From Alphaproteobacteria bacterium (lineage in GTDB: Bacteria; Pseudomonadota; Alphaproteobacteria; Bin95): a DNA stretch of 64,000 bases. Shown here piece by piece: positions 9,334-25,467 of the stretch; the first letter of the stretch is position 1, and each line of letters opens with the position of its first letter. A program made the translations under genes and the position numbers. The DNA is taken from assembly GCA_020638555.1 (NCBI GenBank), contig JACKII010000003.1, positions 112,610-176,609 of the forward strand. Direction: 5' to 3'. Under the pieces are notes generated by a model. It was given only the letters and a program-made list of their open reading frames with translations. It searched no databases and was not told the DNA's origin.

Positions 9334-11958
9334 CTATTCCGCGGCCTTGGTGATTGGAGCGGCCCCCGCCGATTCGGCTTCGACCCGGCCGCCCTCGATG
9401 GTGAAGATGCGTTGCATGGCCTGTGCCTGGTCCGGCTGATCCAGCACGGCGACCACGCCGCGCGGCGCCTGGGCTTCCAGGATACTGGCAAACACCTTGC
9501 CGCGCATCGACTCGTCGAACACGGACAGCGCCTGGTTGACCACCAGCAGGTCCGGTTGCTTGGCCAGCGCGCGGGCAAAGGCGAGTTTCTGCCGCTGCAC
9601 GGCCGACAGCCGGCCGCCGGCGACGCCGACATGATATTCGAGCCCGACATCCAGGATCGAATCGTGCAGGCCGGACTCGTTCAAGACCTCACCGACCAGA
9701 GCCCGCACCTTCGCCGCTCCCTGAGGTTGTCCATAAGCGACCTTTCCGAACAGAATATTGTCCTGAATCGAAGCCGCGCTATTGTACCGTTCCGGATCGA
9801 AGAAGGCCACGGCCCCTTTCAGATCTTCCGGCAGGTGTTCGGCGAAGGAGTGGCGGGCTTCCAGAAGGCGTTCTTCCAGCGAGTCGTCGAGCAGGTCCAG
9901 ACGGTGGCGCGCGGGGATCAGGCGGAACGGCAGCGACATCAGCCGGCTGCGGTCTTCCTCGCCCAACCCGGCAAGGCCCCGGCCACCGCGGTCGATCCGT
10001 CCCAGCAGCGCCTGAAATTCCGGCAGGTCCTCTGCGGCGATGAAGCTGAACTGCTCCATCAATTCGTGTCCCGGTTCGATGTCGGCGAACAGTTCCACCA
10101 TGGTTTCCGCCACCTTGCGGCCGATCCGGACGACATCGTCGGTCAATCCGACCCGGTCCAGCGTCTCTCGCACATAGGGATGTTCGCCCAGATTCTCCAG
10201 GTCGAACGTGGTTCCGACCGGGGTGCCGAACAGCAGGTTTTCGGCAAAGGTGGCGTTCCGGTTGTACCGCTCGGGATCGAAGGGTTCGATCAGGGCGCCG
10301 GCCCCGCTGGCGGCCACCCGTTCGCGGAAGGCGGCCCGCACCTCGAGCAGGGATTCCACCAGATGCGGATGGGCGTCACCGTCGATGCGGCCGCGCAGGC
10401 CGAACTCGTAAATGTCGTCGGCCAGCAGGGCGTCCTTGACCGACTGGCGCAGGCGCCGTTGCAGGTCGTCGGCACTGCCGTCGAGGCCGGCGCCTTCGTA
10501 ATGGATCCAGTCGCCGCTCAGATTGAAGATGCTGTTGCCGGCCGTCTCCGCCTCGGCGATCCAGGCGCGGCGGCTCTCGTCGACCTCCGCCGGCGGGTGC
10601 GTGCGCAGCGCCAGCAGCAGGTTTTCGCGGATGCTGGCGGAAAACAGATAGGGCTGGGCCGAAACATAGCCGATGCGCCGGCCGAGCCGCGCCTCCGGTA
10701 TCGTTCCCAGGTCGTCGTCGCCATACTGGATGCGGCCCGATGTCGGCGCGATCAGACGCACCAGCAGCGGCGCGATCTCCTCCTTGCCGCCGCCGCTGGG
10801 GCCGACAAAGGCGACCCGCTGGTCCAGGCCGAAGGCCAGATTGACATTGTGCAGGTAGACCGTGCCGTCGTCGTCGGCGAGCCCGACATGGCGCAGGGCG
10901 ATCTGCGCCTCGCCCGGAAACGGCGACGGCGGAATGTCGTCCGTGGCATGCAGATCCGGCTCCATCATGCCCGGTGGGTCGAACTGCTGGATGACGGTAT
11001 CGTATTTGATCCGGGCGTCGGCCAGCTGCTGGTAATAGGCCAGCAATTCCTTCCAGGGCGCGTTCATGTCCTTGTGGGCACTGATGACGGCGATCAGCGC
11101 ACCGACGCTCAGATTGCCCGTGATCGCCAGATACCCGCCCAGCGAATAGAATAGGAACGGCGTGAATTGCGCCAAGAAATTGTTGAAAAATTTAATAAAA
11201 AATTTTCTCCGGAAAATTTCGTACCGGATTTCATAGATAATTCCCAGGCGATGGGAAAATCGCGACAACTGATACTGGCTGCTGTCATTGGTGTGAATTT
11301 CGGATATGCCGCTGATGCTTTCCCCCAACTGGTCCGAGAGGATGCGGATGTTCTGCACCCGCTGCTTGGCCAGCTGGTTGACCTTTTTCTGGAGCCTGGG
11401 CACCAGCACGCCCTGGATGGGGAACAGCGCCACCGCCGCCAGACCGAGCCAAGGGTCCTGCATCAGGATGAACACCAGCAGGGTCACCAGGATGCCGCCC
11501 TGGTAGAGCGGCAGCGCCAGCGCATCGCCGAAAAAGCCGCCCAGCGGCTCCACCTCCTGCGTCACCATGGGGATCAACTCGCCCTGGCTGACCCGGCGGA
11601 AGTGCGGCAGGGGAAAGCGCAGAATGCGCTCGTACAGGATATAGCGCAGCCGGCGCAGCATGCGCTCGCCCAACCGCCCTTTCATCACATTGAGAACGTA
11701 TTTGAAGCCGCCATTGATGAGGACAAGCAGGAGAAACAGGCCGCACAAAACGAACAGATACGGCAAGTGCTCGAACTCGTAGCCATAGAATTCCTTTGGA
11801 AAATCGGCGGGCCGCCCCTGAATGGCCCCGTTGACGATGCGCTTCGGCAACTCCGCCTGAAAGTAAATGAACGGAAATGCGGCAAATGTCAGCACGATCA
11901 AAATGATCTGCTGGCGCTTACTGTAGGCAAAGATATAGCCGAACAGGGTTTGCTTCAT
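9334..11958 (-). CDS. ABC transporter, fused permease/ATP-binding protein with degenerate, internally repeated ATP-binding domain
   Basis: ATG at 11958 with AAGAG RBS (TTG at 11976 alternative); N-terminal 6-TM type-I exporter domain. The ATP-binding domain has an atypical Walker A (GPSGGGKE) and a Q-loop (VSAQ). The post-Q-loop segment is present three times (SIRENLLL / FDPERYNRNATFAENLLFG / FDPERYNSAASIQDNILFG). The signature is degenerate (LSAVQ), Walker B reads LLVVNQ, and the H-loop is not recognisable. Confidence 0.8.
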   Translation of the reverse strand: MKQTLFGYIFAYSKRQQIILIVLTFAAFPFIYFQAELPKRIVNGAIQGRPADFPKEFYGYEFEHLPYLFVLCGLFLLLVLINGGFKYVLNVMKGRLGERMLRRLRYILYERILRFPLPHFRRVSQGELIPMVTQEVEPLGGFFGDALALPLYQGGILVTLLVFILMQDPWLGLAAVALFPIQGVLVPRLQKKVNQLAKQRVQNIRILSDQLGESISGISEIHTNDSSQYQLSRFSHRLGIIYEIRYEIFRRKFFIKFFNNFLAQFTPFLFYSLGGYLAITGNLSVGALIAVISAHKDMNAPWKELLAYYQQLADARIKYDTVIQQFDPPGMMEPDLHATDDIPPSPFPGEAQIALRHVGLADDDGTVYLHNVNLAFGLDQRVAFVGPSGGGKEEIAPLLVRLIAPTSGRIQYGDDDLGTIPEARLGRRIGYVSAQPYLFSASIRENLLLALRTHPPAEVDESRRAWIAEAETAGNSIFNLSGDWIHYEGAGLDGSADDLQRRLRQSVKDALLADDIYEFGLRGRIDGDAHPHLVESLLEVRAAFRERVAASGAGALIEPFDPERYNRNATFAENLLFGTPVGTTFDLENLGEHPYVRETLDRVGLTDDVVRIGRKVAETMVELFADIEPGHELMEQFSFIAAEDLPEFQALLGRIDRGGRGLAGLGEEDRSRLMSLPFRLIPARHRLDLLDDSLEERLLEARHSFAEHLPEDLKGAVAFFDPERYNSAASIQDNILFGKVAYGQPQGAAKVRALVGEVLNESGLHDSILDVGLEYHVGVAGGRLSAVQRQKLAFARALAKQPDLLVVNQALSVFDESMRGKVFASILEAQAPRGVVAVLDQPDQAQAMQRIFTIEGGRVEAESAGAAPITKAAE

Positions 11959-12166
11959 CGGTAACTCTTGGCACAAAGGCGCGGCCGGGAGCCAATCTCG
12001 AACTTACCCGAAATCCCCGCGACTAACAATCACTTGGCCGAACTCCGCCTTTAGCCCATGTTTAAGATGTGATGCGTGCGTGGTAGCGTGCCGCTCGGTA
12101 CGGAGTGAAGGGCTCGGAAGATTGCCCCCAAAGGGTCCGGCCGAAAGTTGCAAATGGGAGCGGTCA
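11959..12166. promoter_or_regulatory. divergent intergenic control region between ABC exporter operon and glycosyltransferase operon
   Basis: 208-bp gap between divergently oriented first genes; GGGAG RBS 8 nt before ATG 12167. Confidence 0.3.
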
Positions 12167-13402
12167 ATGCGAGAAGCGCTGACTGGTGTGTCGGGAAGCA
12201 GGCGGATCCTGATCTACAGCCATGACAGTTTCGGCCTCGGCCATCTGCGCCGTTGCCGCGAGATCGCCAATGCACTGGTGGAGACCTACGATCATCTGTC
12301 GGTGCTGATCCTTTCGGGCTCGCCGATCATCGGCAGTTTCGACTTCCGTCCGCGGGTCGATTTCGTGCGCATTCCGGGCATGATCAAGCTGTCGAACGGC
12401 GAGTACACCTCGCACGCGCTCGACATCGCCCCGGAAAAGACGCTGGAATTGCGGGCGGCGGTGATCGGCGAGACCGCGCGGATTTTCGATCCCGACGTGT
12501 TCCTGGTCGACAAGGAACCGCTGGGCCTGCGCGGCGAGGTGCGCGCCACCCTGGAAATGCTGCGCGAACACGGCACCCGCATCGTGCTGGGCCTGCGCGA
12601 CGTGATGGACGATCCGGACGCGCTGGAGCCGGAATGGAAGCGCAAAAAGGCCCATTCCGCGCTGCGCGATCTCTATGACGACATCTGGGTTTATGGCCTG
12701 CCGCAAATCTGCGACCCGCTGGAAGGGGTCGACCTGCCGGATTCCGTGCGGCGCAAAATGGTCTATACCGGCTATCTGCGCCGGCGGGTGAGCCCGCGGC
12801 CCGATGCGGCGGTGAACCTGGTCGGCACCGAGCCCTATATCCTGGTGACGCCCGGCGGCGGCGGCGACGGCGATGCGCTGGTGGACTGGGTGGTCCGCGC
12901 TTACGAGCAGGACCCCGACCAGCCCTATCGCGCCCTGGTCGTGTTCGGCCCGTTCATGCAGGGCGAGCAGCAACAGGCCTTCCGCCAGCGCATCGAGGCG
13001 CTGGCCAATGTCGAGGCGATCACCTTCTACAACCAGATGGAAACGCTGATCGCCGGCGCCACTGGCGTCATCGCCATGGGCGGCTACAACACGTTCTGCG
13101 AGATCCTGTCGTTCGACAAGCCGGCCATCATCGTCCCCCGCACCCGGCCCCGCATGGAACAGTCGATCCGCGCCGCGCGGGCGCAGGAGCTGGGGCTGGT
13201 GCGCATGCTCGACCCGGACGACGGCCGCCCGGCGCGCGTCATGGCGACGGCGATCCGGCAATTGCCGCAGCAGGGCCGGCCGTCGGACGTGGTGGTGCCG
13301 GGCCTGCTGGACGGACTGGACAACGTCAATCGCCTGGTCGGTCGCGCATTGGACCAGGCGCGCCTGCCGCCGCTGCGCTTTGCCGAGGCGGGCGGTGACT
13401 GA
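12167..13402 (+). CDS. GT-B fold glycosyltransferase (PseG/MurG-like N-terminus)
   Basis: ATG 12167 within track ORF 12080..13402; N-terminal ILIYSHDSFGLGHLRR motif typical of PseG/MurG-like GT-B enzymes; C-terminal GGYNT motif. Confidence 0.75.
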   Translation: MREALTGVSGSRRILIYSHDSFGLGHLRRCREIANALVETYDHLSVLILSGSPIIGSFDFRPRVDFVRIPGMIKLSNGEYTSHALDIAPEKTLELRAAVIGETARIFDPDVFLVDKEPLGLRGEVRATLEMLREHGTRIVLGLRDVMDDPDALEPEWKRKKAHSALRDLYDDIWVYGLPQICDPLEGVDLPDSVRRKMVYTGYLRRRVSPRPDAAVNLVGTEPYILVTPGGGGDGDALVDWVVRAYEQDPDQPYRALVVFGPFMQGEQQQAFRQRIEALANVEAITFYNQMETLIAGATGVIAMGGYNTFCEILSFDKPAIIVPRTRPRMEQSIRAARAQELGLVRMLDPDDGRPARVMATAIRQLPQQGRPSDVVVPGLLDGLDNVNRLVGRALDQARLPPLRFAEAGGD

Positions 13403-14678
13403 CCGCAACGGTTCCGCGCCCGGGCGGACGGCGGTTGCGGTCGTTCTGAAAGGCTATCCACGGCTCTCCGAGACCTTCATCGCCCAGGAAATCCTGGCGT
13501 TGCAGCAGCGCGGGCTCTACCAGCACATCGTCTCGCTGCGCCATCCGACCGACCGGAAGCGTCACCCGATGCACGACGCGATCCGGGCGCCGGTGCTCTA
13601 TCTGCCGGAATACCTGTATCAGGAGCCGCTCCGGGTGCTGCGGGCCTGGTGGCGGGTGCGGCGGCGGCCGGCCTATCGGGCGGTGCGGCGGCAATGGCTC
13701 CGCGACTGGCGGCGCGACCGCACGCCGAACCGCGGCCGACGGTTCGGCCAGGCGCTGGTGCTGGCTGCTGAACTTCCGGCGGACATCGGCCATCTGCACG
13801 CGCATTTCCTGCACACCCCGGCCTCGGTGACGCGCTATGCGGCGGCGCTCAGCGGCCTCTCGTGGAGCGTCTCCGCCCATGCCAAGGACATCTGGACCTC
13901 GCCCGAATGGGAAAAGCGCGAGAAGCTGGCGGATTGCGCCTGGGCGGTGACCTGCACCGCCTTCGGCGCCGCGCACCTCCAGGCGCTGGCACCCGCGCCG
14001 GAACGGGTAGAGTTGCTGTATCACGGCCTGGACCTCGGCCGATTTCCGCCGCCGCTGGCCGAGCGCGGGGCACGTGACGGCAGCGATCCCGGCGCGCCGG
14101 CGCGGCTGCTCTCGGTCGGCCGGGCCGTGCCGAAAAAGGGCTATGACGACCTGCTCGACGCCCTCGCCCGCTTGCCGGCGGACCTGGCCTGGCATTTGAC
14201 CCATATCGGCGGCGGCAAGCTTGCCAGGCCCCTGCAACAGCGGGCCGAGCGCCTGGGCATCGCCCACCGCATCACCTGGCAGGGTTCGCAGGCGCAGGAG
14301 GCGGTGGTCGCGGCCTATCGCGAGGCGGACCTGTTCGTGCTCGCCAGCAAGGTGGCGGATGACGGCGACCGCGACGGCCTGCCGAACGTGCTGATGGAGG
14401 CGCAGAGCCAGGGCCTGGCCTGCCTGGCAACGACGGCGGCGGGCATCCCGGAACTGATCCGCGACGGCGAGACCGGGCGTTTGGTGCCGCCGGGCGATCC
14501 GGCCGCGCTGGCCGACGCCCTGGCGGCACTGATCCGGGCGCCGCAGGAGCGCGCGCGCCTCGGCCTGGCCGGCGCGGCGGCGTTGCGCCAGCGGTTCTCG
14601 TGCGAGACCGGCGTGGACCGACTGGCGCGGCGCTTCGGCCTCGCCGCCGGTGCGCCGTCAGCGCGCGCCGCGGAATAA
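13395..14678 (+). CDS. glycosyltransferase family 4
   Basis: GTG 13395 overlaps previous stop (GTGA); GT4 C-terminal domain with E-x7-E region (PNVLMEAQSQGLACLATTAAGIPE). Confidence 0.8.
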   Translation: MTDRNGSAPGRTAVAVVLKGYPRLSETFIAQEILALQQRGLYQHIVSLRHPTDRKRHPMHDAIRAPVLYLPEYLYQEPLRVLRAWWRVRRRPAYRAVRRQWLRDWRRDRTPNRGRRFGQALVLAAELPADIGHLHAHFLHTPASVTRYAAALSGLSWSVSAHAKDIWTSPEWEKREKLADCAWAVTCTAFGAAHLQALAPAPERVELLYHGLDLGRFPPPLAERGARDGSDPGAPARLLSVGRAVPKKGYDDLLDALARLPADLAWHLTHIGGGKLARPLQQRAERLGIAHRITWQGSQAQEAVVAAYREADLFVLASKVADDGDRDGLPNVLMEAQSQGLACLATTAAGIPELIRDGETGRLVPPGDPAALADALAALIRAPQERARLGLAGAAALRQRFSCETGVDRLARRFGLAAGAPSARAAE

Positions 14679-14693
14679 GGGCGTCCTCCCCGC

Positions 14694-15821
14694 ATGCGCG
14701 TTGCCTTTTATGCGCCGCTGAAGCCGCCGGACCACCCCACCCCGTCCGGCGACCGCCGCATCGCCCGGCTGCTGCTGGAGGCGTTGCGGCTCGCCGGCCA
14801 TGACGTGCATCTGGCATCCCGGCTGCGGTCGCGCGATGCGGTCGGCGACCGGCTGCGGCAGGCGCGGCTGGCCGACCTCGGCCAGCGCGTGGCAGCGCGG
14901 CTGCTGCGGCGGTATGCGGGCGCGGACGCCCGGCCCGACGCGTGGATCACCTATCACCTCTATTACAAGGCACCGGACTGGATCGGCCCGCACGTGGCGG
15001 CGGCGCTGGGCATCCCCTATATCGCGATCGAGGCCAGCCATGCGCCGAAACGCGCCGGCGGCCCCTGGGATCTGAGCCATCGCGCCGTCGCGCATGCGGT
15101 GCGCCAGGCGGCCCGCATCGTCTGCCTGAACCCGAACGACCGCGCCTGCCTGGAGCCGCTCGCCCCCGGCCGCATCGCCCTGTTGCCACCGTTTCTCGAC
15201 CCGACCCCGTACGCGCCGGCGGCAGGCGCCCGCGCGGCCCTGGCGGCGCGATACGGCCTGCCGATGGGGGAGCCCTGGCTGCTGGCCGTGGGCATGATGC
15301 GGCCCGGCGACAAGCTCGCCTCCTACCGCCAGCTGGCCGCGGCCCTGACGCGCCTCACCGACCGCCCCTGGCGCCTGCTGGTGGCGGGCGACGGCCCGGC
15401 GGCGGCGGCGGTGCACGCCGCCTTCGCACCGCTGGCGGACCGTGTGCACTGGCTCGGCGCGCTGGACGAGGCGGCCCTCGCCCGCGTCTATCCGGCCGCC
15501 GACCTGCTGGTCTGGCCCGCGGTGCGCGAGGCGTTCGGCATGGCCTTGCTGGAAGCGCAGGCCGGCGGGCTGCCCGTGGTGGCCGGCCGCACCGACGGCG
15601 TGCCCGCGGTGGTCGCGGCCGACACGACCGGCCTGCTGCCGCCGCCGGACGACATCGCCGCCTTCGCCGCCGCCGTCGCCACCCTGCTCGACGACCCCGC
15701 CCGGCGTGAGGCGATGGGACAGGCTGCGCGGGCGCGGGTTTTGCGGCATCATTCGCTCCAAACCGCAGCCATCGCACTCGACCGCATTCTGACGGAGGCC
15801 CTATGCCACTCCTCAGCCTGA
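14694..15821 (+). CDS. glycosyltransferase family 4 (MshA-like N-terminus)
   Basis: 375 aa; N-terminus MRVAFYAPLKPPDHPTPSGDRRIA resembles MshA-type GT4 enzymes; C-terminal GT4 motif (ALLEAQAGGLPVVAGRTDGVPAVV). Confidence 0.8.
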   Translation: MRVAFYAPLKPPDHPTPSGDRRIARLLLEALRLAGHDVHLASRLRSRDAVGDRLRQARLADLGQRVAARLLRRYAGADARPDAWITYHLYYKAPDWIGPHVAAALGIPYIAIEASHAPKRAGGPWDLSHRAVAHAVRQAARIVCLNPNDRACLEPLAPGRIALLPPFLDPTPYAPAAGARAALAARYGLPMGEPWLLAVGMMRPGDKLASYRQLAAALTRLTDRPWRLLVAGDGPAAAAVHAAFAPLADRVHWLGALDEAALARVYPAADLLVWPAVREAFGMALLEAQAGGLPVVAGRTDGVPAVVAADTTGLLPPPDDIAAFAAAVATLLDDPARREAMGQAARARVLRHHSLQTAAIALDRILTEALCHSSA

Positions 15822-16399
15822 TCCGGCACGCGCCCACCACCTGGAACGAGGCCGGACGCATCCAGGGCCAGACCGACACGCCGCTGAGCGAGGCCGGGCG
15901 CGCAGCCCTGCTGACCTGGGAGCCGCCGGCGCCGCTGCTGGCCGCCGACTGGTGGACCAGCCCCCTGCAACGCTGCCGCGACACCGCCCGGCACCTGGCC
16001 GGCCGCACCGTCGCCGTGGACGAGCGCTTGCAGGAAACGAACTGGGGCGACTGGCAGGGCAAGCGCCTCACCGACCTGCGCGAGAGCCTGGGCGAGGAAA
16101 TGGCCGAAATGGAAGGCCGCGGCTGGGATTTCCAGCCGCCGGGCGGCGAAAGCCCGCGCCAGGTCTCGGCGCGGTTTCAGGACTTTGTGCGCGCGGTGGC
16201 GGAGCGCGACCGGCCGACCGTCGCCGTCACCCACCGGGGCGTGATCCGGGTCGCGATGGCGCTGGCGACCGGCTGGGATTTCCTCGGCAAGTCGCCGGTG
16301 AAACTGCGCCGCCCGGCCGCCCACGTGTTCTGGGTGACGGCCGAGGGCACGCTGGAATTGCGCGACGCCAATGTGCCGCTGGGCGAGCCGGTGCCATGA
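15803..16399 (+). CDS. histidine phosphatase family protein (phosphoglycerate mutase-like)
   Basis: 198 aa; catalytic RHG motif (LIRHAPTTWNEAGRIQGQTD); overlaps upstream gene by 19 nt and downstream start by ATGA. Confidence 0.8.
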   Translation: MPLLSLIRHAPTTWNEAGRIQGQTDTPLSEAGRAALLTWEPPAPLLAADWWTSPLQRCRDTARHLAGRTVAVDERLQETNWGDWQGKRLTDLRESLGEEMAEMEGRGWDFQPPGGESPRQVSARFQDFVRAVAERDRPTVAVTHRGVIRVAMALATGWDFLGKSPVKLRRPAAHVFWVTAEGTLELRDANVPLGEPVP

Positions 16400-17571
16400 G
16401 CGACACCATGGCAGAGCGCGCCGGGGACGCCCCGAAAATCCTGTTCTGGGTCCAGCACCTGCTGGGCATCGGCCATCTGAAGCGCACGGCGACGCTGGCC
16501 CGCGCCCTGGCCCGGTCCGGGTTCGCTGTCACCGTGGTCTCCGGCGGTTTCCCGGTGCCGGGGCTGCGGCTCGACGGTGCCGGGTTCATGCAATTGCCGC
16601 CGGTGCGCGCGGTGGATGTGTATTTCAAGGACCTGCGCACCGAAGGCGACCGGCCCATCGACGACGCCTGGCGCGAGACGCGCCGCACCGCGCTGATGGC
16701 CGCCGCCGAGACGATCCGGCCCGACATCGTGCTGACCGAACTGTTTCCGTTCGGCCGCCGGCAACTGGCGTTCGAACTGGAGCCGTTCCTGACCGAAATG
16801 CGTGCCAGGGGCGTGCTGGTCGCCTGCTCCGTTCGCGATATCCTGGTGGAGCCGCCCAAACCCGAACGCCTGCTGGAAATGCTGGAGCGGACCGAGCGGC
16901 TGTTCGACCTGGTGCTGGTCCACGGCGACCCGGATCTGGTGCCGTTCGAAGAGACCTTTCCGCACAAGGAGCGCATCGGCGACCGCCTCGCCTATACCGG
17001 CTATGTGGTGGAAGAGCCGATCGCGGCGGCGGGCCGGGATGGCGAGGGCGAGGTCATCGTCTCCGCCGGCGGCGGTGCCGTCAGCGAACCGCTGCTGCGC
17101 GCGGCCCTGGCCGCGAAGCCGCTCAGCCGGGCGCGCGACCTGCCCTGGCGGCTGCTCTGCGGCGCCGGGATCGGCGAGGCGGCGGTGCGGGACCTGCAAC
17201 GGCTGGCCGACGCGGACACGGTGGTCGAACCGGCCCGGCCGGACTTTCCCGGCCTGCTCGCCCGCGGGCGGCTGTCTGTGAGCCAGGCCGGCTACAACAC
17301 CATCATGGACGTGCTGGCGGCGGGCATTCCCGGCGTCGTCGTCCCCTATGCGGGCGGGCTGGAGAGCGAGCAGACGCTGCGGGCGCGGCGGCTGGCGGAG
17401 CGCGGCGTGCTGCATGTGGTGAACGAGGCGGACCTGACGCCGGAGCGCCTGGCCGCCGGCATCGACCGGGCGCTGGCGGCCCCGCCCGGCTCGCTCGACC
17501 GGCTGGCCACCGACGGGTCTGCCGAGACCGTGCGCCTGTTGCGGGCGGCGCTGGCCCGGCGGCGCGCGTGA
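16396..17571 (+). CDS. GT-B fold glycosyltransferase, paralog of 12167..13402
   Basis: ATG 16396 (MSDTMAERAG) within track ORF 15952..17571; N-terminal ILFWVQHLLGIGHLKR and C-terminal AGYNT motifs parallel the first GT. Confidence 0.75.
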   Translation: MSDTMAERAGDAPKILFWVQHLLGIGHLKRTATLARALARSGFAVTVVSGGFPVPGLRLDGAGFMQLPPVRAVDVYFKDLRTEGDRPIDDAWRETRRTALMAAAETIRPDIVLTELFPFGRRQLAFELEPFLTEMRARGVLVACSVRDILVEPPKPERLLEMLERTERLFDLVLVHGDPDLVPFEETFPHKERIGDRLAYTGYVVEEPIAAAGRDGEGEVIVSAGGGAVSEPLLRAALAAKPLSRARDLPWRLLCGAGIGEAAVRDLQRLADADTVVEPARPDFPGLLARGRLSVSQAGYNTIMDVLAAGIPGVVVPYAGGLESEQTLRARRLAERGVLHVVNEADLTPERLAAGIDRALAAPPGSLDRLATDGSAETVRLLRAALARRRA

Positions 17572-18335
17572 GCGCGTTCGCGCCGCTGCTGGCCGAACTC
17601 GACGCCTGGAGCGAGGCCGGGCGGGTGGCGCAATTCTGGTGGCGCGACGACGACGCCGCCGACGCCGCTCCGGCCCTGGCAACCATGCTGGCGCTGCGGC
17701 GCGCGGCGGAGGTGCCGTTGGCGCTGGCGGCGATCCCGCTGGCGGCGACGGACGCGCTGGCGGACGCTGTGGCGGCGGAGTCGGGCGTTCAGGTCTGGCA
17801 GCACGGCATCCGCCACGCCAACCGCGCCGCACCGCCGGCGAAAAAGCAGGAACTGGTGAGCGCGGCGCCGGATATCCGCGCCGGCCTGGAGGAAGGCCGG
17901 CGGCAACTGGCGCGGCGGTTCGGCGCTCGGGCGCGGCCGGTGCTGGTGCCGCCCTGGAACCGCATCGCGCCGGACCTGCTGCCGCTGCTGCCCGGCCTGG
18001 GGTTTTGCGGCCTTTCCACCTTCAAGCCGCGCTCGAAGCCCTTTGCCGCGCCGGGGCTCGGCCGGATCAACACGCATGTGGACCTACTGGATTGGCGGGC
18101 GGGGGCAAGTTTCCGCGGCGCCGAGGCCTGCGTCCGCGACCTGACCGCCCATCTGTCCGCCAAGCGCAACGGCCGGGCCGACGCCGACGAACCGACGGGC
18201 GTGCTCGGCCATCATCGGGTGATGCAGGCCGACGCCTGGGCCTTTCTTGGCGCGCTGTTCGCCGCTACAACAGAAAAATCGTGCTGCGTCTGGACGCTGC
18301 CCGCCTTCCCTGACCCGGCGTCGGAGCCCGAATGA
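17568..18335 (+). CDS. polysaccharide deacetylase-like protein (divergent CE4)
   Basis: GTG 17568 overlapping prior stop (GTGA); CE4-like motifs WWRDDDA (Asp pair), QHGIRH (His-x3-His), VPPWNRI. Confidence 0.65.
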   Translation: MSAFAPLLAELDAWSEAGRVAQFWWRDDDAADAAPALATMLALRRAAEVPLALAAIPLAATDALADAVAAESGVQVWQHGIRHANRAAPPAKKQELVSAAPDIRAGLEEGRRQLARRFGARARPVLVPPWNRIAPDLLPLLPGLGFCGLSTFKPRSKPFAAPGLGRINTHVDLLDWRAGASFRGAEACVRDLTAHLSAKRNGRADADEPTGVLGHHRVMQADAWAFLGALFAATTEKSCCVWTLPAFPDPASEPE

Positions 18336-18844
18336 CCACCGCAGAGGCCCGTTTTCACTATCCGCTCGGCAATCTGGTGCCAGACTATCTGCGCGCCGGC
18401 GCCGGCTTCGGCCTGTCCATGGTGCCGCTGCCGGCGGCTTTGGGCGCGCATCCCCTGGTGCTGTTGATCGTCCTGGGGTTTGCCGGCCTGTTCGGCTCGT
18501 TCGGCGTGACGACCTTCATGCGCCAGAAATCGACGGTCATCGCCTCCGACGCGGGAATCCGGATCGAAGGCTTACGCAGCAAGGCGATTCGCTGGGAGGA
18601 CGTGCAGGGGGTCGACCTGCGCTATTTTTCCACCCGCAAGGAAAAAGACAAGGGCTGGCTGCAACTGAAAGTGATCGGACCAAACGGAACCGTTAAGGTG
18701 GACTCGAACCTGGACGATTTCGACGGCCTGCTGCGTTGGGTGGTGACCGCTATCACTCGACACGATTTGTCGGTTACGCTTATTGGACGAGAAAACTTTG
18801 CATCCAAGGGCCAACCATTGCCCACCAGGGAGGATACCGCGTGA
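18332..18844 (+). CDS. hypothetical small membrane protein (2 predicted TM helices plus PH-like soluble domain)
   Basis: ATG 18332 overlapping prior stop (ATGA); hydrophobic stretches GFGLSMVPLPAALGAHPLVLLIVLGFAGLFGSF; stop overlaps next GTG. Confidence 0.5.
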   Translation: MTTAEARFHYPLGNLVPDYLRAGAGFGLSMVPLPAALGAHPLVLLIVLGFAGLFGSFGVTTFMRQKSTVIASDAGIRIEGLRSKAIRWEDVQGVDLRYFSTRKEKDKGWLQLKVIGPNGTVKVDSNLDDFDGLLRWVVTAITRHDLSVTLIGRENFASKGQPLPTREDTA

Positions 18845-20706
18845 CGCCGCTGCTTGAGGTCGAGAACCTCTGCATCGACTTCAGCCTGCCGAGCGGGCCG
18901 ATGCGGGCGGTCGATGGGCTGAGCTTTCGCGTGCCGGCGGGCCGGACGGTCGCCCTGGTCGGCGAGAGCGGTTCGGGCAAATCGGTCACCGCCCAGGCGA
19001 TCATGGGCATCCTGCCAAGGGTGGCCAAAATCACCGGGGGCGCCATCCGCTTTCGCGATCCCGCGGCCAATGGCGCCGTGGTCGACATCGCCCAACTGGC
19101 GCCGGACGGCGGCGCCTTCCGCAATCTGCGCGGCGGGCGCATCGCCATCATTTTCCAGGAGCCGATGACATCGCTCTCGCCGGTGCACACCATCGGCAAC
19201 CAGATCGGCGAGGCGCTGGAACTCCACCGCGGCGTCGGCAAGACAGAGGCGCGCGCCGAAACCATCGAGATGCTGGACCTGGTCGGCTTCCCCGATCCGG
19301 AGCGCACCATCGACAGCTATCCGTTCGAACTCTCCGGCGGGCTGCGCCAGCGGGCGATGATCGCCATGGCGCTGGTCTGCCGCCCGGCGCTGCTGATCGC
19401 CGACGAGCCGACCACGGCGCTGGACGTGACGATCCAGGCGCAAATCCTCAAGCTTCTGAAGGATTTGCAGGCCCGTTTTCAGATGGCCGTGCTGATCATC
19501 ACCCACGACCTGGGCGTGGTCGCCAATGTCGCCGACGAGGTGGTGGTGCTCTATCACGGTCGGCTGATGGAATCCGGTGCGGTCGAGGATATTTTCCGCG
19601 ATCCGGGCCACCCCTACCTGAAAGCGCTGCTGCACGCGGTGCCACGCTTTCACATGGAAGTGGGCGAGCGGCTGGTGCCGCTGCGCGAGGTGGAAGCCGC
19701 CAGCGGCACGCTGCTGACGCCGCGCCCGCCCCTGGAAGGCCACGACCCGATTCTGACGGTCGCGGGGCTGACCAAATCCTTCGGCCAGCGCAAGCGCGGC
19801 CTGTTCGCGGGCAGCCATGCCGGCGGGCGGACACTGGCAGTGCGCGACGTCTCGTTCGCCATCGCTCCCGGCGAGTGCCTGGGTCTGGTCGGCGAGAGTG
19901 GCTGCGGCAAGTCCACGACCTCGAAAATCATCATGCAGGCGCTGGCCCCGGACAGCGGCAGCGTCACGCTGCGCACCGAGAACGGACCAGTCGACGTGTT
20001 GCATGCCGAAGGGGCGCAACTGATGCAGTTGCGCCGCCGGATGCAGTACATTTTCCAGGACCCGTTCAGCGCCCTGAACCCGCGCATGACCGTGTTCGAC
20101 ATCGTCAGCGAGCCGCTGGTGATCCATGGCATCGGCACGGCGGCGGAGCGGCGCGCCTTCGTCATCGAACTGATGCAGCGCGTCGGCCTGGACCCGCGCT
20201 ATCTGAACCGCTACCCGCACAGCTTTTCCGGCGGCCAGCGCCAGCGCATCGGCATCGCGCGTGCCCTGGCGCTGCGGCCGCAAGTGCTGATCTGCGACGA
20301 GCCCGTCTCGGCGCTCGACGTGTCGGTGCAGGCGCAGATCCTGAACCTGCTGAAGGATTTGCAGCGGGAGTTGGGGCTGACCTACCTGTTCATTTCCCAC
20401 AATCTGGCGGTGGTGGACTATATGGCGGACCGGATCGCGGTGATGTGCGCCGGGCGGCTGGTGGAACTGGCGCCGCGCGCCGCACTGTTCCGGGGCCCGC
20501 GCCATCCCTACACCCAGGCGCTGGTGAGCGCGGTGCCGGAGCCGAGCCTGGATCATCCGCTGGATTTCCGCCGGGTGATGGACGAACGCGCGTCCGACCC
20601 CGCGGCCTGGCCGCCCCCCTATGCCGACGCCGACGGCGCCGCGCGGCTGGTGGAGGTGGAGCCGGGCCACTATGTGCGCCAGCGCGCCGAAGCGGCGGCG
20701 GCGTGA
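18841..20706 (+). CDS. ABC transporter ATP-binding protein with two ATP-binding domains (YejF/DppDF-like)
   Basis: GTG 18841 ([14 protein letters not shown]) within track ORF 18736..20706; two Walker A boxes ([16 protein letters not shown]), two LSGG signatures. Confidence 0.85.
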
Positions 20707-20720
20707 GGGGCGGACCGACC

Positions 20721-22604
20721 ATGCGCATTCTGGCATTGCTGTTGCTTTGGCTGTCGCTGAGTGCGGCCAACTACCTAGAAACGCCGTATTTCGCCGACAA
20801 GGTGAAGGCCGGCGACCTGCCGCCGGTGGCGGACCGCCTGCCCGAGACACCCGATGTCGAGCCCTTCGCCGACGCCTTTGCCGAGCCGGGCCGGGAGGGC
20901 GGCTCGATCAACATCCTAATGGCCAGCGCCAAGGACGTGCGCCAGATGGTGGTGTACGGCTATGCCCGGCTGGTCGGCTACAATCACCGGCTGGAACTGG
21001 AGCCGGACATTCTGGAGCGCTACACCGTCGAGGACGGGCGGATTTTCACGCTCTATCTGCGCAAGGGCCACAAATGGTCCGACGGCAAGCCCTTCACCTC
21101 CGACGATTTCCGCTATTGGTGGGAGGATATGGCGAACAATCCGGAATTGTCGCCCTCCGGCCCGCCGATCGAGATGCTGGTGGATGGCGAACCGCCGGTG
21201 GTGGAATATCCGGACGACACCACGGTGCGCTACACATGGCCGAAGCCGAACCCCACCTTCCTGCCGGCGCTGGCCGGCGCGCGGCCGCTCTATATCTATG
21301 CGCCCAAGCACTACCTGAAAAAATACCATCCGCGCTATGCCGACCCGGCCAAGCTGGAAGAGCGAGTGAAGAAGTCGAAGCGGCGCAACTGGGCCTCGCT
21401 GCACAACCGCAAGGACAATGCCTACAAGAACGACAATCCGGACCTGCCGACGCTGGAGCCCTGGCGCAACACCACCAAGGCGCCGGCCGAACGCTTCGTC
21501 TTCGAGCGCAACCCGTTCTATCACCGGGTCGATCCGCAAGGCCGGCAACTGCCTTATATCGACCAGGTGATCATGGGCATCGCCTCGTCCGGCCTGATCC
21601 CGGCCAAGGCCGGCAGCGGCGAAAGCGACCTGCAGGCCCGCTATCTGCGCTTCGACAATATCTCGTTCCTGAAGCAGAACGAGGACAACCACAAATTTCA
21701 CACGCTGCTGTGGCGCACCGGCAAGGGCGCGGAACTGGCGCTTTATCCGAACCTCAACATCGAGGACCCGGTCTGGCGCGCCCTGTTCCGGGACGTGCGC
21801 TTCCGGCGGGCGTTGTCGCTGGCGGTGAACCGGCACGAGATCAACCAGGTGATCTTTTACGGCCGCGCCGTGAAAGCCGGCCCCGCGAACACCGTCCTGC
21901 CGGCAAGTCCGTTGTACGACACGATGCGGGATACCCGCTGGACCCAGTTCGACCTGAAGCGGGCGAATGCGCTGCTGGACGAAATCGGCCTGAAGCGAGG
22001 CCCGGGCGGCATCCGGCGCCTGCCGGACGGACGGCCGCTGGAAATCATCGTCGAAACCGCGGGCGAGAGCACCGAGCAGGTGGATGCCTTGCAACTGGTG
22101 CACGATTCCTGGCTGGACGCGGGCATCAAGATTTTCACCAAACCGCTGCAACGCGAGGTGCTGCGGAACCGGATCTTTGCGGGCCAGACGCAGATGGCGA
22201 TCTGGTTCGGCCTGGAAAACGGCCTCGCCACCGCCGAAATGTCGCCCGCCGAACTGGCGCCGACCACGCAGCAGCAATTGCAGTGGCCGCGCTGGGGCCA
22301 ATACTACGAGACCAAGGGCCAATCCGGCGCGCCCATCGACATGCCGGAGCCGCAACTCCTGTTCGACCTCTACCGGGATTGGCGCGAGGCTCGGACCGAC
22401 GACGCCCGCCGCGCCATCTGGCGCGATATGCTGGACATCTGGACCGACCAGGTGTTCACGATCGGGCTGGCCGCAGGCGCCGAACAGCCGGTGGTCGTAT
22501 CGAACCGCCTGCACAACATTCCCGCCAACGGCTTCTACAACTGGGATCCGGGGGCGCATTTCGGCTGCTACCGGCCGGACCGGTTCTGGCTGACACCGGA
22601 GTGA
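20721..22604 (+). CDS. ABC transporter substrate-binding protein, family 5 (YejA/OppA-like)
   Basis: ATG 20721 (MRILALLLLWLSLSAA signal peptide) within track ORF 19875..22604; about 627 aa periplasmic binding protein architecture. Confidence 0.85.
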   Translation: MRILALLLLWLSLSAANYLETPYFADKVKAGDLPPVADRLPETPDVEPFADAFAEPGREGGSINILMASAKDVRQMVVYGYARLVGYNHRLELEPDILERYTVEDGRIFTLYLRKGHKWSDGKPFTSDDFRYWWEDMANNPELSPSGPPIEMLVDGEPPVVEYPDDTTVRYTWPKPNPTFLPALAGARPLYIYAPKHYLKKYHPRYADPAKLEERVKKSKRRNWASLHNRKDNAYKNDNPDLPTLEPWRNTTKAPAERFVFERNPFYHRVDPQGRQLPYIDQVIMGIASSGLIPAKAGSGESDLQARYLRFDNISFLKQNEDNHKFHTLLWRTGKGAELALYPNLNIEDPVWRALFRDVRFRRALSLAVNRHEINQVIFYGRAVKAGPANTVLPASPLYDTMRDTRWTQFDLKRANALLDEIGLKRGPGGIRRLPDGRPLEIIVETAGESTEQVDALQLVHDSWLDAGIKIFTKPLQREVLRNRIFAGQTQMAIWFGLENGLATAEMSPAELAPTTQQQLQWPRWGQYYETKGQSGAPIDMPEPQLLFDLYRDWREARTDDARRAIWRDMLDIWTDQVFTIGLAAGAEQPVVVSNRLHNIPANGFYNWDPGAHFGCYRPDRFWLTPE

Positions 22605-22665
22605 GGGTCCGCGCCATGCACACGCCGCAAGCAACGCACGACCCGAGGGACAGGCAGGCCGCCCG

Positions 22666-23664
22666 ATGCTGAACTACACGGCCCAGCGCATCCTGATGAT
22701 GGTTCCGACCCTGCTGGCGATCAGCGTGTTGGTGTTCGTCATCATCCAACTGCCGCCCGGCGACTATCTCACCACCTACATGGCCGAATTGCAGTCCCAG
22801 GGCGAGGCGGTCGACCAGAGCAAGATCGAGTTCCTGCGCCAGCAATACGGCCTCGACAAGCCCTATTGGGAGCAATACCTGCTCTGGCTCGGCGGCATGC
22901 TGACCGGCGATTTCGGCTATTCCTTCGCCTACGACCTGCCCGTGAGCGAGGTGGTGGGAGACCGGCTCTATCTCAGTTTCCTGTTATCGTTCTCCACCAT
23001 CATCTTCACCTGGATCGTCGCCTTTCCCATCGGCATTTATTCGGCGACGAACCAGTATAGCTGGGGCGATCACGGCCTGACGCTGGTCGGCTTCCTGGGG
23101 CTGGCGACGCCGAACTTCCTGCTGGCGCTGGTGCTGCTCTATTTCGGCAAGGTCTGGTTCGGCACCTCCATCGGCGGCCTGATGGCGCCGGAATTCCTGG
23201 ACCAGCCCATGTCCTGGGCCAAATTCCTGAGCGTGCTGGAGCATTTGTGGGTGCCGGTCGTGGTGATCGGCACGTCCGGCACGGCCGGCATGATCCGCCG
23301 CCTGCGCGCCAACCTGCTGGACGAACTGCAGAAACAATATGTGACCACGGCCCGAGCCAAAGGCCTCAGTCCCTTGAAAGTCTTGACGAAATACCCGCTG
23401 CGCATGGCGCTGAACCCGTTCATCGCCGACATCGGCAACCTGTTGCCGCAGGTGGTCTCCGGTGCCGCCATCGTCTCGCTGGTGCTGTCGCTGCCGACCA
23501 CCGGGCCGATGCTGATCGAGGCACTCAGGGCGCAGGACATGTATCTGGCGGGCTCGTTCCTGATGTTCCTGGCCTCGCTGACGGTCATCGGCGTCCTGAT
23601 CTCCGATCTGGCCCTGGCCGCGCTCGACCCGCGCATCCGCCTGGGCGGAGGCAATGGCGAATGA
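22666..23664 (+). CDS. ABC transporter permease (YejB/DppB-like)
   Basis: 332 aa polytopic; binding-protein-dependent permease EAA-like region (ARAKGLSPLKVLTKYPLRMALNP). Confidence 0.85.
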   Translation: MLNYTAQRILMMVPTLLAISVLVFVIIQLPPGDYLTTYMAELQSQGEAVDQSKIEFLRQQYGLDKPYWEQYLLWLGGMLTGDFGYSFAYDLPVSEVVGDRLYLSFLLSFSTIIFTWIVAFPIGIYSATNQYSWGDHGLTLVGFLGLATPNFLLALVLLYFGKVWFGTSIGGLMAPEFLDQPMSWAKFLSVLEHLWVPVVVIGTSGTAGMIRRLRANLLDELQKQYVTTARAKGLSPLKVLTKYPLRMALNPFIADIGNLLPQVVSGAAIVSLVLSLPTTGPMLIEALRAQDMYLAGSFLMFLASLTVIGVLISDLALAALDPRIRLGGGNGE

Positions 23665-24845
23665 CCGCCCCGCCCCGCCGCCCCGACCTGGACCCCCTGC
23701 CGCACACCGTTTCCAAGGCGCCGTTCGACCCCTATTCGGTCGAGGCCGTGACGGCCGAGCAGGAACGCTATTACCTGGCCACCCAGTGGCAGTTGATGTG
23801 GTGGAAGCTGAAACGCCACCGGCTGGCGGTCTGGTCCGGCCTGTTCCTGATCGCGCTCTACGCCTCGATCCTGGTCAGCGAAATCCTGGCACCCTACGCG
23901 CTGCAAACGCGGAACACCGACTTCCTCTACCATCCGCCGCAGGAGGTGCACTGGTTCCACGACGGCGCCTTCGTCGGCCCGTTCGTCTACAAGAGCGTCG
24001 GGGAGTTCGACCTCAAGGATTTCCAGTGGCGCTATACGGAAGACACGACCCTGCCGCAGCCGCTGCGCTTTTTCTGCCTGGGCGATTCCTACCGCTATTT
24101 CGGCATGATCGAGGGGCGGTTCCACCTGGTCTGCCCGGCCGAAGGCGGCCAGTTGTTCCTGCTCGGCACCGACCGGCTGGGGCGGGACGTGCTGTCGCGC
24201 ATCATCTATGGCGCGCGCATCTCGCTGACGGTCGGCCTGTTCGGCATCACGATCTCGTTCGCCATCGGCATCCTCCTGGGCGGGCTGGCCGGCTATTACG
24301 GCGGCTGGGTCGACAATACGGTGCAGCGCGCGATCGAGGTGGTGCGCTCGTTTCCGGAACTGCCGTTGTGGATGGCCCTGTCCGCCGCCCTGCCGGTGAC
24401 GTGGAGCCCGATCCTGGTCTATTTCGGCATCACCATCATCCTGGGCATGTTGGACTGGACCGGGCTCGCGCGCGCCGTGCGCTCGAAGCTGCTGGCTCTG
24501 CGCGAGGAGGATTTCACCACCGCCGCGGTGCTGATGGGCGCCAAGCCGGCGCGGGTGATCGGCCGCCACCTGATCCCCAACTTCATGAGCCATCTGATCG
24601 CATCGGCCACGCTTTCCATCCCCAGCATGATTCTGGGCGAGACCGCGCTCAGCTTTCTCGGCCTGGGCCTGCGCCCGCCGATCACCAGCTGGGGCGTGCT
24701 GCTGGTGGAGGCGCAGAACATCAACGTGGTCGCGCTCTATCCCTGGCTGATGCTGCCGGTGGTGCCGGTGATTCTGACCATCCTGGCCTTCAACTTCCTG
24801 GGCGACGGACTGCGCGACGCGGCAGACCCATACAAGAGCGGCTGA
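23661..24845 (+). CDS. ABC transporter permease (YejE/DppC-like)
   Basis: ATG 23661 overlaps previous stop (ATGA); within track ORF 23247..24845; permease signature (GAKPARVIGRHLIPN). Confidence 0.85.
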   Translation: MTAPPRRPDLDPLPHTVSKAPFDPYSVEAVTAEQERYYLATQWQLMWWKLKRHRLAVWSGLFLIALYASILVSEILAPYALQTRNTDFLYHPPQEVHWFHDGAFVGPFVYKSVGEFDLKDFQWRYTEDTTLPQPLRFFCLGDSYRYFGMIEGRFHLVCPAEGGQLFLLGTDRLGRDVLSRIIYGARISLTVGLFGITISFAIGILLGGLAGYYGGWVDNTVQRAIEVVRSFPELPLWMALSAALPVTWSPILVYFGITIILGMLDWTGLARAVRSKLLALREEDFTTAAVLMGAKPARVIGRHLIPNFMSHLIASATLSIPSMILGETALSFLGLGLRPPITSWGVLLVEAQNINVVALYPWLMLPVVPVILTILAFNFLGDGLRDAADPYKSG

Positions 24846-24984: not shown

Positions 24985-25467
24985 ATGCGGTTTCTTTTGG
25001 CGTTGGCCTTGGGCCTGTTCCTGGCGGCCTGTAGCACCAGCCAGCAGGCTGGCACCGATGCCAGCGGCACCGGCGGCACCGGCACCACCACCCAGCCGGC
25101 CGGCCCTGCCCCCAACACCCAGGCCTATTTGAACCAGACCATCGGCGATCGGGTCTTCTTTGATTTCGACCGTTACACCGTTCGCCCGGACATGCAGGGC
25201 ACCGTGGCGGCCTGGGCCAAATGGATGCAGGAAAACCCGTCCGTTCGCGTGCTGATCGAAGGCCATGCCGACGAGCGCGGCACCCGCGACTACAACTACG
25301 CGCTGGGCGCCCGTCGCTCGCACGAGGTCAAGGTGGCGTTGATGGCCATGGGCGTCGCGGAAAACCGGATCGAGACCACGACCTTCGGCAAGGACCGTCC
25401 GGCCGTGCTCGGCTCGAACGAGGCCGCGTGGGCGAAGAACCGCCGCGCCGTCGTCGTGGTGCAATAA
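24985..25467 (+). CDS. pal: peptidoglycan-associated lipoprotein
   Basis: Lipobox LAAC, low-complexity linker, OmpA-like C-terminal domain (NYALGARRSHEV...NRRAVVVV); AAGGAG RBS. Confidence 0.9.
   Translation: MRFLLALALGLFLAACSTSQQAGTDASGTGGTGTTTQPAGPAPNTQAYLNQTIGDRVFFDFDRYTVRPDMQGTVAAWAKWMQENPSVRVLIEGHADERGTRDYNYALGARRSHEVKVALMAMGVAENRIETTTFGKDRPAVLGSNEAAWAKNRRAVVVVQ

Follow-up and report, generated by a model that had tools for sequence, protein, structure and literature searches.

Among the described systems, the closest relative of the locus analyzed here is the gene cluster smb21252-smb21271 on pSymB of Sinorhizobium meliloti 1021, which contains redA and redB and was named PPP for phazolicin-protecting polysaccharide (Travin et al., 2023; PMC10128002). 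In S. meliloti, the one organism with genetic data, the phenotypes connected with this cluster are strong and comprise protection from a ribosome-targeting peptide antibiotic, membership in a list of symbiosis genes and induction during predation. Protection from phazolicin or pyocyanin has been described in S. meliloti and, through a cited work, in A. tumefaciens, and the minimal inhibitory concentration was 8-fold lower for insertion mutants in smb21252 and smb21265 (PMC10128002). According to the portions of the phazolicin transposon sequencing (Tn-seq) study considered here, the log2 depletion of SMb21252, 53, 56, 59, 64, 65, 66, 69 and 71 ranged from -3.5 to -5.4, genes for glycosyltransferases (GTs), deacetylase, dehydrogenase, lyase, exporter and methyltransferase were depleted 10- to 40-fold, and the polysaccharide lyase and the UDP-sugar dehydrogenase were both needed for the phazolicin phenotype (PMC10128002). 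A symbiosis Tn-seq analysis lists SM_b21260 and SM_b21262 together with SM_b21252, 56, 65, 66 and 69 (Flores-Tinoco et al., 2020; PMC7268258 Dataset EV3), and 7 of 9 PPP genes were induced during Myxococcus predation (PMC10315480). We found no report on the structure of the PPP product in the literature searched, and searches for the domain combinations, COG4671 and redA/redB returned nothing.

In this work we describe a locus on contig JACKII010000003.1 of an Alphaproteobacteria bacterium (GCA_020638555.1), within a stretch of 64,000 nucleotides that is called the window throughout. The full locus consists of 14 genes (8379-24845): eleven genes on the plus strand (g1 to g11, 12167-24845) and a divergent operon of three genes on the minus strand, which encodes an ABC exporter, a protein binding cyclic nucleotide monophosphates (cNMP) and a methyltransferase dependent on S-adenosylmethionine (SAM). 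Judged by sequence comparison, the locus is homologous to the PPP cluster. An original prediction for this DNA had proposed an undescribed system; the locus is instead a further member of a named, mechanistically unexplained family (PMC10128002). We read it, with about as much confidence as doubt, as one representative of a widespread proteobacterial PPP-type locus, in which a glycan would be assembled in the cytoplasm, exported by an ABC transporter and recaptured by an importer.

The homology was analyzed by searching pSymB 818-850 kb with the window proteins (tblastn), and genes were assigned via the supplementary coordinates of the respective papers. Orthologs of g1-g3, g5, g6, g8-g11, the exporter and the cNMP protein are located at 822.5-845 kb with 35-69% identity, and their coordinates coincide with SMb21252, 53, 60-66, 69 and 70. 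In detail, g1 is 53% identical to redA (pSymB 837168-838316) and g5 43% to SMb21266, both being best mutual matches in the region, and the values are 57% for g2 and SMb21265, 45% for g3 and SMb21252, and 35% for g6 and SMb21253. The importer genes g8 (61%, pSymB 831120-832961), g9 (52%), g10 (69%) and g11 (69%) have the same order of ATPase, solute-binding protein and two permeases in both organisms. The exporter matches the region of SMb21269, designated as PPP ABC exporter, with 37% identity over ~85% of the window protein, and the cNMP protein the region of SMb21270 with 52% identity. Nevertheless, both loci differ in several points. In PPP the importer is located between two biosynthetic blocks, and the gene next to the cNMP gene, SMb21271, codes for a COG0500 methyltransferase of ~250 aa that is not detectably of the Methyltransf_17 type found in the window. 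Furthermore, PPP lacks the histidine phosphatase g4 and the membrane protein g7, both present in the window, but in addition contains a polysaccharide lyase (PF14099), a UDP-sugar dehydrogenase (COG0677), a hydrolase of the metallo-beta-lactamase (MBL) fold, a DUF3095 protein, a cyclase and an MscS-type channel. Using the lyase and UDP-sugar dehydrogenase proteins of S. meliloti and Sulfitobacter as tblastn queries, we obtained 0 matches in the 64-kb window, and both could be encoded elsewhere in the genome.

The original prediction had interpreted g1-g11 as one translationally coupled operon between xseA and pal, combining four GTs, a histidine phosphatase, a CE4 deacetylase and a small membrane protein with a Yej-type importer. 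All eleven open reading frames (ORFs) are indeed real at these coordinates, with one terminal stop codon each and a GC content at third codon positions (GC3) of 0.75-0.91 at an average GC content of the window of ~68%; g6 is 100% identical to KDC18_17065. Reading the junctions from the sequence revealed 7 start/stop overlaps and 3 gaps of 14-61 bp (g2/g3 15 bp, g8/g9 14 bp, g9/g10 61 bp), in line with the predicted overlaps or gaps below 65 bp at almost every junction. Five of the overlaps comprise 4 bp as proposed (ATGA at 16396, GTGA at 17568, ATGA at 18332, GTGA at 18841, ATGA at 23661). The supposed GTGA at 13395 is an 8-bp overlap between the g2 start at this position and the g1 stop (TGA 13400-13402), and g4, starting with ATG at 15803, overlaps g3 by 19 bp. 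A scan for terminator-like sites in the window yielded 11 sites against a chance expectation of 10.5, all inside genes and 0 in intergenic gaps, so the idea of a single, tightly coupled string of genes holds with no sign of internal terminators. The locus is flanked by xseA (6598-8223, plus strand) on the 5' side and by an OmpA/Pal-type gene (24985-25467) on the 3' side of g11 as predicted, but the three further genes of the locus between xseA and g1 had been overlooked. The intergenic region of both operons (11959-12166, 208 bp) presumably contains the promoters of both, to judge from its position; a sigma-70 scan, uninformative for a high-GC alphaproteobacterium, gave no site in 11959-12166. 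A known RNA or riboswitch in the leader or the junctions was discarded as an explanation, as Rfam searches at E<=1 gave noise alone, and at the gathering threshold Rfam detected 2 tRNAs in the window, both outside the locus.

Four of the biosynthetic genes code for GTs of the GT-B fold. g1 (12167-13402) and g5 (16396-17571), orthologs of redA (SMb21264) and SMb21266, are GT28_C-like proteins of the COG4671 type (Pfam PF04101, 2.8e-09 and 3.8e-14) and are full-length paralogs with 25% identity. The original prediction had labelled this pair PseG-like, which we reject for both proteins, as g1 reached 15.6 bits in TIGR03590 against a cutoff of 153.55 and g5 gave no match; the S. meliloti orthologs carry the COG4671 label (PMC10128002 Data Set S1). 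g2 (13395-14678), the ortholog of redB (SMb21265), is a WcaL/EpsE-like GT4 (Glycos_transf_1, 1.6e-32) and aligns over its full length with NCBIfam EpsE at 1e-45, which is below the cutoff of that model. g3 (14694-15821) is the second GT4 (Glycos_transf_1, 2.5e-27) and the ortholog of SMb21252, and its closest chains in the PDB are MshA, the sucrose-phosphate synthase Tll1590, PimB' and BshA. It is followed by g4 (15803-16399), a branch 1 histidine phosphatase (His_Phos_1, 4.2e-40) with the glucosyl-3-phosphoglycerate phosphatase GpgP (4PZ9, 7.6e-15) as top PDB match and alpha-ribazole phosphatase barely behind.

g6 (17568-18335), the ortholog of SMb21253, is a divergent cytoplasmic deacetylase of the CE4/NodB fold; the protein database contains over 1600 homologs of it. 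No Pfam or NCBIfam match including Polysacc_deac_1 was found at E<=0.01, and a profile of 20 sequences gave no sequence match in the PDB. The claim of a CE4 enzyme is borne out at the level of the fold: the AlphaFold2 (AF2) model has a pLDDT of 96, and the 25 best Foldseek matches in the PDB are CE4 deacetylases, esterases or CE4-like domains with a TM score of 0.5-0.6, a probability of 1.00 and 12-18% identity, which is a fold-level likeness. Residues D27-D29, H79-x3-H83, R132, H215 and H216 are invariant across 20 homologs with a CE4-like spacing and are candidates for the Asp-His-His metal triad and the catalytic Asp and His of CE4 enzymes. Between the GT genes and the transporter, g7 (18332-18844) encodes a small membrane protein of 170 aa with a hydrophobic N-terminal segment and weak matches below the cutoffs of bPH_6 (4e-4) and STM3941_fam (1e-4). 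As g1-g6 have no visible signal peptide or transmembrane segment, the assembly looks cytoplasmic.

Based on their domains, g8-g11 are an ABC importer of the Opp/Dpp family. g8 (18841-20706, ortholog of SMb21260) is an ATPase with two fused nucleotide-binding domains (NBDs), containing two ABC_tran and oligo_HPY domains, and g9 (20721-22604, ortholog of SMb21261) a periplasmic family-5 solute-binding protein of 627 aa (SBP_bac_5, 7e-57) with a signal-peptide-like N-terminus. The permeases are g10 (22666-23664, ortholog of SMb21262; OppB/DppB-like, BPD_transp_1 and BPD_transp_1_N) and g11 (23661-24845, ortholog of SMb21263; OppC/DppC-like, BPD_transp_1 with a long N-terminal region). From its matches g9 is assigned to the long, oligosaccharide-binding subgroup of the family-5 binding proteins: the PDB hits are 5IPW (3e-77), the pectin-binding protein SPH1118 (2e-63) and an alpha-galactoside-binding protein (4e-32), and OppA, DppA and MppA align over short N-terminal stretches only. 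The closest solved relative, 5IPW, is a T. maritima protein without known ligand, and SPH1118 binds pectin oligosaccharides and gave no response to peptide mixtures (PMC9314435).

YejABEF, which is connected with microcin C, peptides and muropeptides, and GsiABCD are likewise type I importers of the Opp/Dpp family; with the window importer they share an ATPase of two fused NBDs, a binding protein of family 5 and a long permease of the OppC type. From the predicted importer of the YejF-A-B-E type the fused ATPase and the gene order remain, the latter being F-A-B-E in the window. The Yej identity itself is excluded by the NCBIfam cutoffs and the relatives of g9, as all Yej and Gsi equivalog models score well below their thresholds: GsiA 610 bits (cutoff 1077) and YejF 541 bits (834) for g8, YejB 110 bits (445) for g10 and the YejE type 120 bits (439) for g11. 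Opp4B with 245 bits (450) for g10 and Opp4C with 267 bits (350) for g11 do not reach their cutoffs either. The binding protein groups with SPH1118, the AgpA/MelB type and 5IPW and not with YejA, OppA or MppA. A combination of biosynthesis, exporter and Opp/Nik-family importer is also found in the staphylopine system cntKLM-cntABCDF-cntE, and the CntA, CntC, CntD and CntF models give family-level matches to the window importer. This likeness is purely architectural, as staphylopine is an opine metallophore with an exporter of the major facilitator superfamily type, whereas the window locus points to a glycan and contains no metal-related gene.

The first gene of the divergent operon (9334-11958, minus strand, divergent from g1) encodes an 874-aa type IV ABC exporter with a transmembrane domain (TMD) and an NBD, which resembles MsbA and HepA. 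Pfam assigned ABC_membrane and a split ABC_tran domain, the NCBIfam matches MsbA, HepA and, weaker, PglK are all below cutoff, matches to NdvA/ChvA were also obtained, and the PDB matches are ABCB1, MsbA and PCAT1. The TMD-NBD half-transporter fold is shared with MsbA, PglK, NdvA/ChvA and HepA, and the context of a glycan cluster has precedent. Unlike these type IV glycan exporters, whose family cutoffs it does not reach, the window exporter has its NBD split by a helical insertion of ~270 residues (residues ~455-730), which is confidently modelled in the AF2 structure (pLDDT 82). A motif following the Q-loop occurs three times in the protein ('YLFSASIRENLLL', 'YNRNATFAENLLFG' and 'YNSAASIQDNILFG'), and the insertion is kept in all exporter homologs of ~870-885 aa. 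A fold search with the exporter model returned generic ABCB-type exporters, and no solved ABC structure matched the NBD insertion.

The second gene (8867-9313, minus strand) codes for a protein of 148 aa that consists of a cyclic-nucleotide-binding domain alone (Pfam cNMP_binding, 9.3e-21). The pairing of such a domain with an ABC exporter has a precedent in the NHLP bacteriocin exporters (TIGR03796/TIGR03797). In contrast to the fusion in TIGR03797 exporters, the domain is a separate protein in the window. The last gene of the operon (8379-8870, minus strand), whose ATG overlaps the upstream stop codon (ATGA), encodes the Methyltransf_17 SAM methyltransferase (Pfam PF12692, 7.9e-59; PDB 3IHT, 3.3e-41). 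A regulation of the CRP/Clr type was considered and dismissed, as a DNA-binding domain is absent from the cNMP protein; the paper on the S. meliloti Clr regulon (PMC5498481) concerns the adjacent nodP2-smb21248 cluster and not PPP, and cyaF2 is chromosomal. In related loci the cNMP module is made up of a binding-only protein, often together with a class III cyclase of ~450 aa and an MBL-fold hydrolase, possibly a phosphodiesterase; examples in our survey are located at 4932-7437 in L045, 15691-16896 in L037 and 11000-12718 in L081. The window locus has the binding protein alone, without cyclase and MBL-fold hydrolase.

To compare the locus with other genomes, we scanned genomes with a g6 profile, which detected at least 589 species, kept the best 80 loci and mapped all window proteins onto them; the following counts refer to those 42 loci that have flanks of 9 kb or more in either direction. 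The GT28 pair and both permeases were present in 31 of 42 loci, the histidine phosphatase g4 in 32, the exporter in 29, the cNMP protein in 28, the binding protein in 26, g7 in 22 (27-38% identity in most loci and up to 78% in the nearest relatives) and the Methyltransf_17 gene adjoining the exporter in 21. The apparent exceptions to the linkage of GTs and importer mostly have a transporter at the outer edge of the fetched flank, and 30 loci are colinear across the g6-(g7)-g8 junction. A reciprocal search of metagenome contigs, with the binding protein as query, yielded 25 loci; 14 of them have 5 kb or more of upstream sequence, and every one of these 14 includes the GT genes in the same order. 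The linkage extends over alpha-, beta- and gammaproteobacteria and at least four gene orders: g1-g4 are inverted in Azospirillum, gamma- and betaproteobacterial loci have g1-g5-g6 facing an inverted g4/g3/g2, the exporter and the importer, Rhodobacterales have the importer upstream, and two biosynthetic blocks flank it in Sinorhizobium. Since it is kept in both directions and across rearrangements, the association of GTs with the importer is a property of the system. Thus, the predicted association of sugar enzymes and importer is not accidental, and loci with both are clearly common, contrary to a scenario in which they are never co-located. The locus is also independent of the xseA/pal neighborhood, as pal, tilS and ftsH, the downstream window genes tested, were found in none of the related loci.

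Orthologs of the cNMP protein (tblastn, 30-81% identity) occur in 42 related alpha-, beta- and gammaproteobacterial loci, the orthologous class III cyclase in at least 13 loci and the MBL-fold hydrolase also in many. At the position after the cNMP gene where alphaproteobacterial loci have Methyltransf_17, gamma- and betaproteobacterial loci contain a conserved protein of ~219 aa without Pfam match and without detectable similarity to the Methyltransf_17 protein (5399-6055 in L045; orthologs in L017, L033, L048, L053, L076, L079 and L080). Loci of the Reyranella/Pelagibius type (L010, L019, L020, L024, L026, L037, L042, L054 and L078) have the order ATPase-permease-permease with no g9 homolog within 10 kb; here the transporter may function without a binding protein, or the gene for it may be located elsewhere. 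A tblastn search of g6 against plasmids detected replicons of Rhizobium, Sinorhizobium, Azospirillum and Sulfitobacter. On the Sulfitobacter plasmid (L082) the set is complete and extended by a UDP-sugar dehydrogenase, an MscS channel and a GNAT protein. R. leguminosarum pRL11 (L081) retains only a GT4 and the deacetylase and also has a cyclase, methyltransferases and an ABC exporter of shorter length. Overall, the rhizobial and roseobacter variants (L081, L082 and L083/L085 from pSymB) add DUF3095, UDP-sugar dehydrogenase, PF14099 lyase, FkbM or GNAT enzymes and MscS-type channels.

The enzyme families of the biosynthetic genes are established, and the S. meliloti GT, deacetylase, exporter and methyltransferase orthologs are needed for a protective envelope function. 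Starting from here, the cycle of assembly, export and recapture could proceed as follows. The four soluble cytoplasmic GT-B enzymes (two COG4671/GT28_C-like, two GT4) would build a glycan from nucleotide sugars, with substrates and order being presumed, and g4, coupled to g3, would strip phosphate from a phosphorylated intermediate as in GpgS/GpgP or SPS/SPP. g3 and g4 may act as a synthase/phosphatase couple, both structural links being weak. g6 would then de-N-acetylate an amino sugar and the SAM methyltransferase would methylate the product, whereby fold and family are evident and the chemistry is predicted; the product is probably de-N-acetylated and methylated. The MsbA/HepA-type exporter, whose genetic need has been demonstrated in S. 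meliloti, would carry it over the inner membrane. Gene linkage and the class III cyclase encoded at the locus in many genomes suggest that the cNMP-binding protein probably modulates the exporter. This connection to cNMP is supported by the presence of the gene in 42 loci and of the cyclase in at least 13, and by the depletion of chromosomal cyaA and a putative cNMP phosphodiesterase in the phazolicin screen, as given in the portions of the data considered (PMC10128002). By extrapolation of the S. meliloti phenotype to the window organism, the product would form a protective barrier of the envelope. The Opp-family importer would finally return fragments or surplus of the product for recycling or feedback and would be dispensable for synthesis. 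As the nearest characterized relatives of g9 bind oligosaccharides, we assume a product-derived oligosaccharide as ligand. Neither SMb21260-63 nor the cNMP-protein gene is among the affected genes listed in those portions of the phazolicin screen (PMC10128002), which fits an importer that is not needed for synthesis and, if importer mutants are truly unaffected, recapture rather than supply of a precursor. Including the divergent operon, the picture shifts from synthesis and uptake to synthesis, export and uptake; the original idea of a glycoconjugate system outside textbook pathways was right in spirit and incomplete with respect to export.

Several points weigh against this interpretation. 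No product has been isolated from any organism, and the term polysaccharide is a speculation of the S. meliloti authors (PMC10128002). Domain scans detected no priming phosphoglycosyltransferase, Wzx/Wzy, Wzm/Wzt, polysaccharide co-polymerase (PCP) or outer membrane polysaccharide export (OPX) protein among the 14 genes of the locus, so a classical surface polymer is not obviously encoded, and none of the priming transferase, Wzx/Wzy, ABC-2 and PCP/OPX families recurs among the 80 related loci. The requirement for the lyase argues for a polymer in S. meliloti. The window has no lyase, UDP-sugar dehydrogenase, MBL hydrolase, DUF3095 protein or cyclase and S. meliloti no g4 and g7; therefore the products may differ. 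Moreover, the gene for the binding protein is missing in the Reyranella- and Pelagibius-type loci, the importer is missing among the affected genes of the phazolicin screen as listed in the portions considered (PMC10128002), and the transport direction of both ABC systems is predicted. The list of symbiosis genes is long, which makes shared membership weak evidence (PMC7268258).

An alternative that seems possible to us but rather doubtful is a soluble product that is small and defined, namely a glycoside or an oligosaccharide of ~3-5 sugars on a phosphorylated small acceptor, in place of a surface polymer. It would be exported and re-imported in a cycle like that of staphylopine and Cnt and could act as a signal, as a carrier molecule or, in the periplasm, as an osmolyte or protectant. 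Just four single GT-B enzymes without genes for a polymerase, chain-length control or outer-membrane export would suit such a product, and so would the layout of biosynthesis, exporter and Opp-family importer, which is typical of secreted and re-imported metabolites, and the type IV ABC exporters NdvA/ChvA, which are known to export soluble glycans. In addition, an overlap of 19 bp joins the synthase-phosphatase pair g3/g4, the solved proteins most similar to g3 (MshA, SPS, BshA, GlgM) act on small soluble acceptors, and the top PDB match of g4 is the phosphatase of a glucosylated small molecule. However, the match of g3 to MshA and SPS is confined to the donor-binding C-terminal half, and for g4 GpgP is barely ahead of alpha-ribazole phosphatase. 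S. meliloti, without g4 and with a need for a polysaccharide lyase, argues for a polymer at least there, and the barrier phenotype against phazolicin is simpler to explain with an envelope-associated polymer. MscS-type channel genes in the Sulfitobacter, Rhodobacterales and Sinorhizobium variants would agree with a small glycoside, but as a clue to an osmolyte they were set aside, since they are linked only in Rhodobacterales and Sinorhizobium variants and not in general. A GT4 coupled with a phosphatase or deacetylase is also known from the pathways for glucosylglycerate (GpgS/GpgP), sucrose (SPS/SPP), mycothiol (MshA/MshA2/MshB) and bacillithiol (BshA/BshB). Compared with these, the window deacetylase has the CE4 fold and not that of LmbE, there is no GT81 and no cysteine ligase, and the locus has three GTs more as well as two ABC transporters; an identity with the mycothiol or bacillithiol pathway was rejected, as MshA scored 82 bits (cutoff 462) and BshA 80 bits (cutoff 274) and no ligase gene is present.

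We regard it as unlikely that the GTs modify a lipid or lipid-linked component such as the lipopolysaccharide core, lipid A, a glycolipid or an undecaprenyl-diphosphate oligosaccharide, which an MsbA/PglK-like exporter would flip while the importer salvages released sugars. MsbA and HepA and, weaker, PglK are the best NCBIfam matches of the exporter, g1 and g5 share the C-terminal domain of MurG/GT28, redA is annotated as 'slightly similar to MurG' (PMC7268258 Dataset EV3), and g2 aligns over its full length with GT4s of the WcaL/EpsE type, which use lipid-linked intermediates. These family matches are, however, far below the cutoffs, the GTs have no predicted membrane anchor, the locus contains no priming transferase or lipid-handling enzyme, and soluble intermediates are a better match for a histidine phosphatase that is itself soluble and for a CE4 enzyme of the cytoplasm. 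Even less probable is that the importer transports peptides or muropeptides and has no functional relation to the glycan operon beside it, or that it supplies the GTs with a precursor or acceptor. The membership in the Opp/Dpp/Nik family, the annotation in S. meliloti as 'murein peptide/oligopeptide ABC transporter' (PMC7268258 Dataset EV3) and the import of peptides and muropeptides by Yej-type relatives (PMC10128002, PMC9790009) would speak for it. An unrelated transporter is difficult to reconcile with a reciprocal linkage that outlasts at least four rearrangements in three classes and with oligosaccharide binding by the closest characterized relatives of g9, and SPH1118 did not respond to peptide mixtures (PMC9314435); a supplier of precursors predicts phazolicin-sensitive importer mutants, and none is among the Tn-seq genes listed in the portions considered.

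Returning to a PPP-type locus with assembly, export and recapture, we propose as a more specific and rather tentative version a make-export-recapture cycle gated by cNMP. A defined, partly de-N-acetylated and methylated oligosaccharide, and not a conventional polysaccharide, would be made on a phosphorylated small acceptor, leave the cell through an exporter with an enlarged NBD under control of the stand-alone cNMP protein, and be retrieved from the periplasm by the Opp-family importer. If true, such a cycle would define a new class of glycan systems for signalling or for conditioning the envelope in hundreds of alpha-, beta- and gammaproteobacterial species. The family is in any case widespread, with the deacetylase marker in at least 589 species genomes from three proteobacterial classes and on rhizobial and roseobacter plasmids, and its interest lies in this distribution and the known phenotypes in combination with a dedicated importer, a cNMP module and an enlarged exporter NBD. 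The hypotheses that the importer is part of the system, that the system has its own cNMP module, that the exporter NBD is unusual and that most non-rhizobial versions include a synthase/phosphatase step go beyond the S. meliloti papers.

In the surroundings of the locus, purD (5263-6560, minus strand; TIGR00877, 1.8e-156) is divergent from xseA, and a minus-strand ORF call extending far upstream of purD across the xseA region is an artefact of the high GC content. Further downstream, the GC content decreases to 0.58-0.62 at 52800-55200 compared with ~0.68 on average in the window. This dip contains a two-ORF IS630-like transposase (52848-53797) and a low-GC ORF for a multi-pass membrane protein of 393 aa (53939-55120), and it is probably a small insertion.

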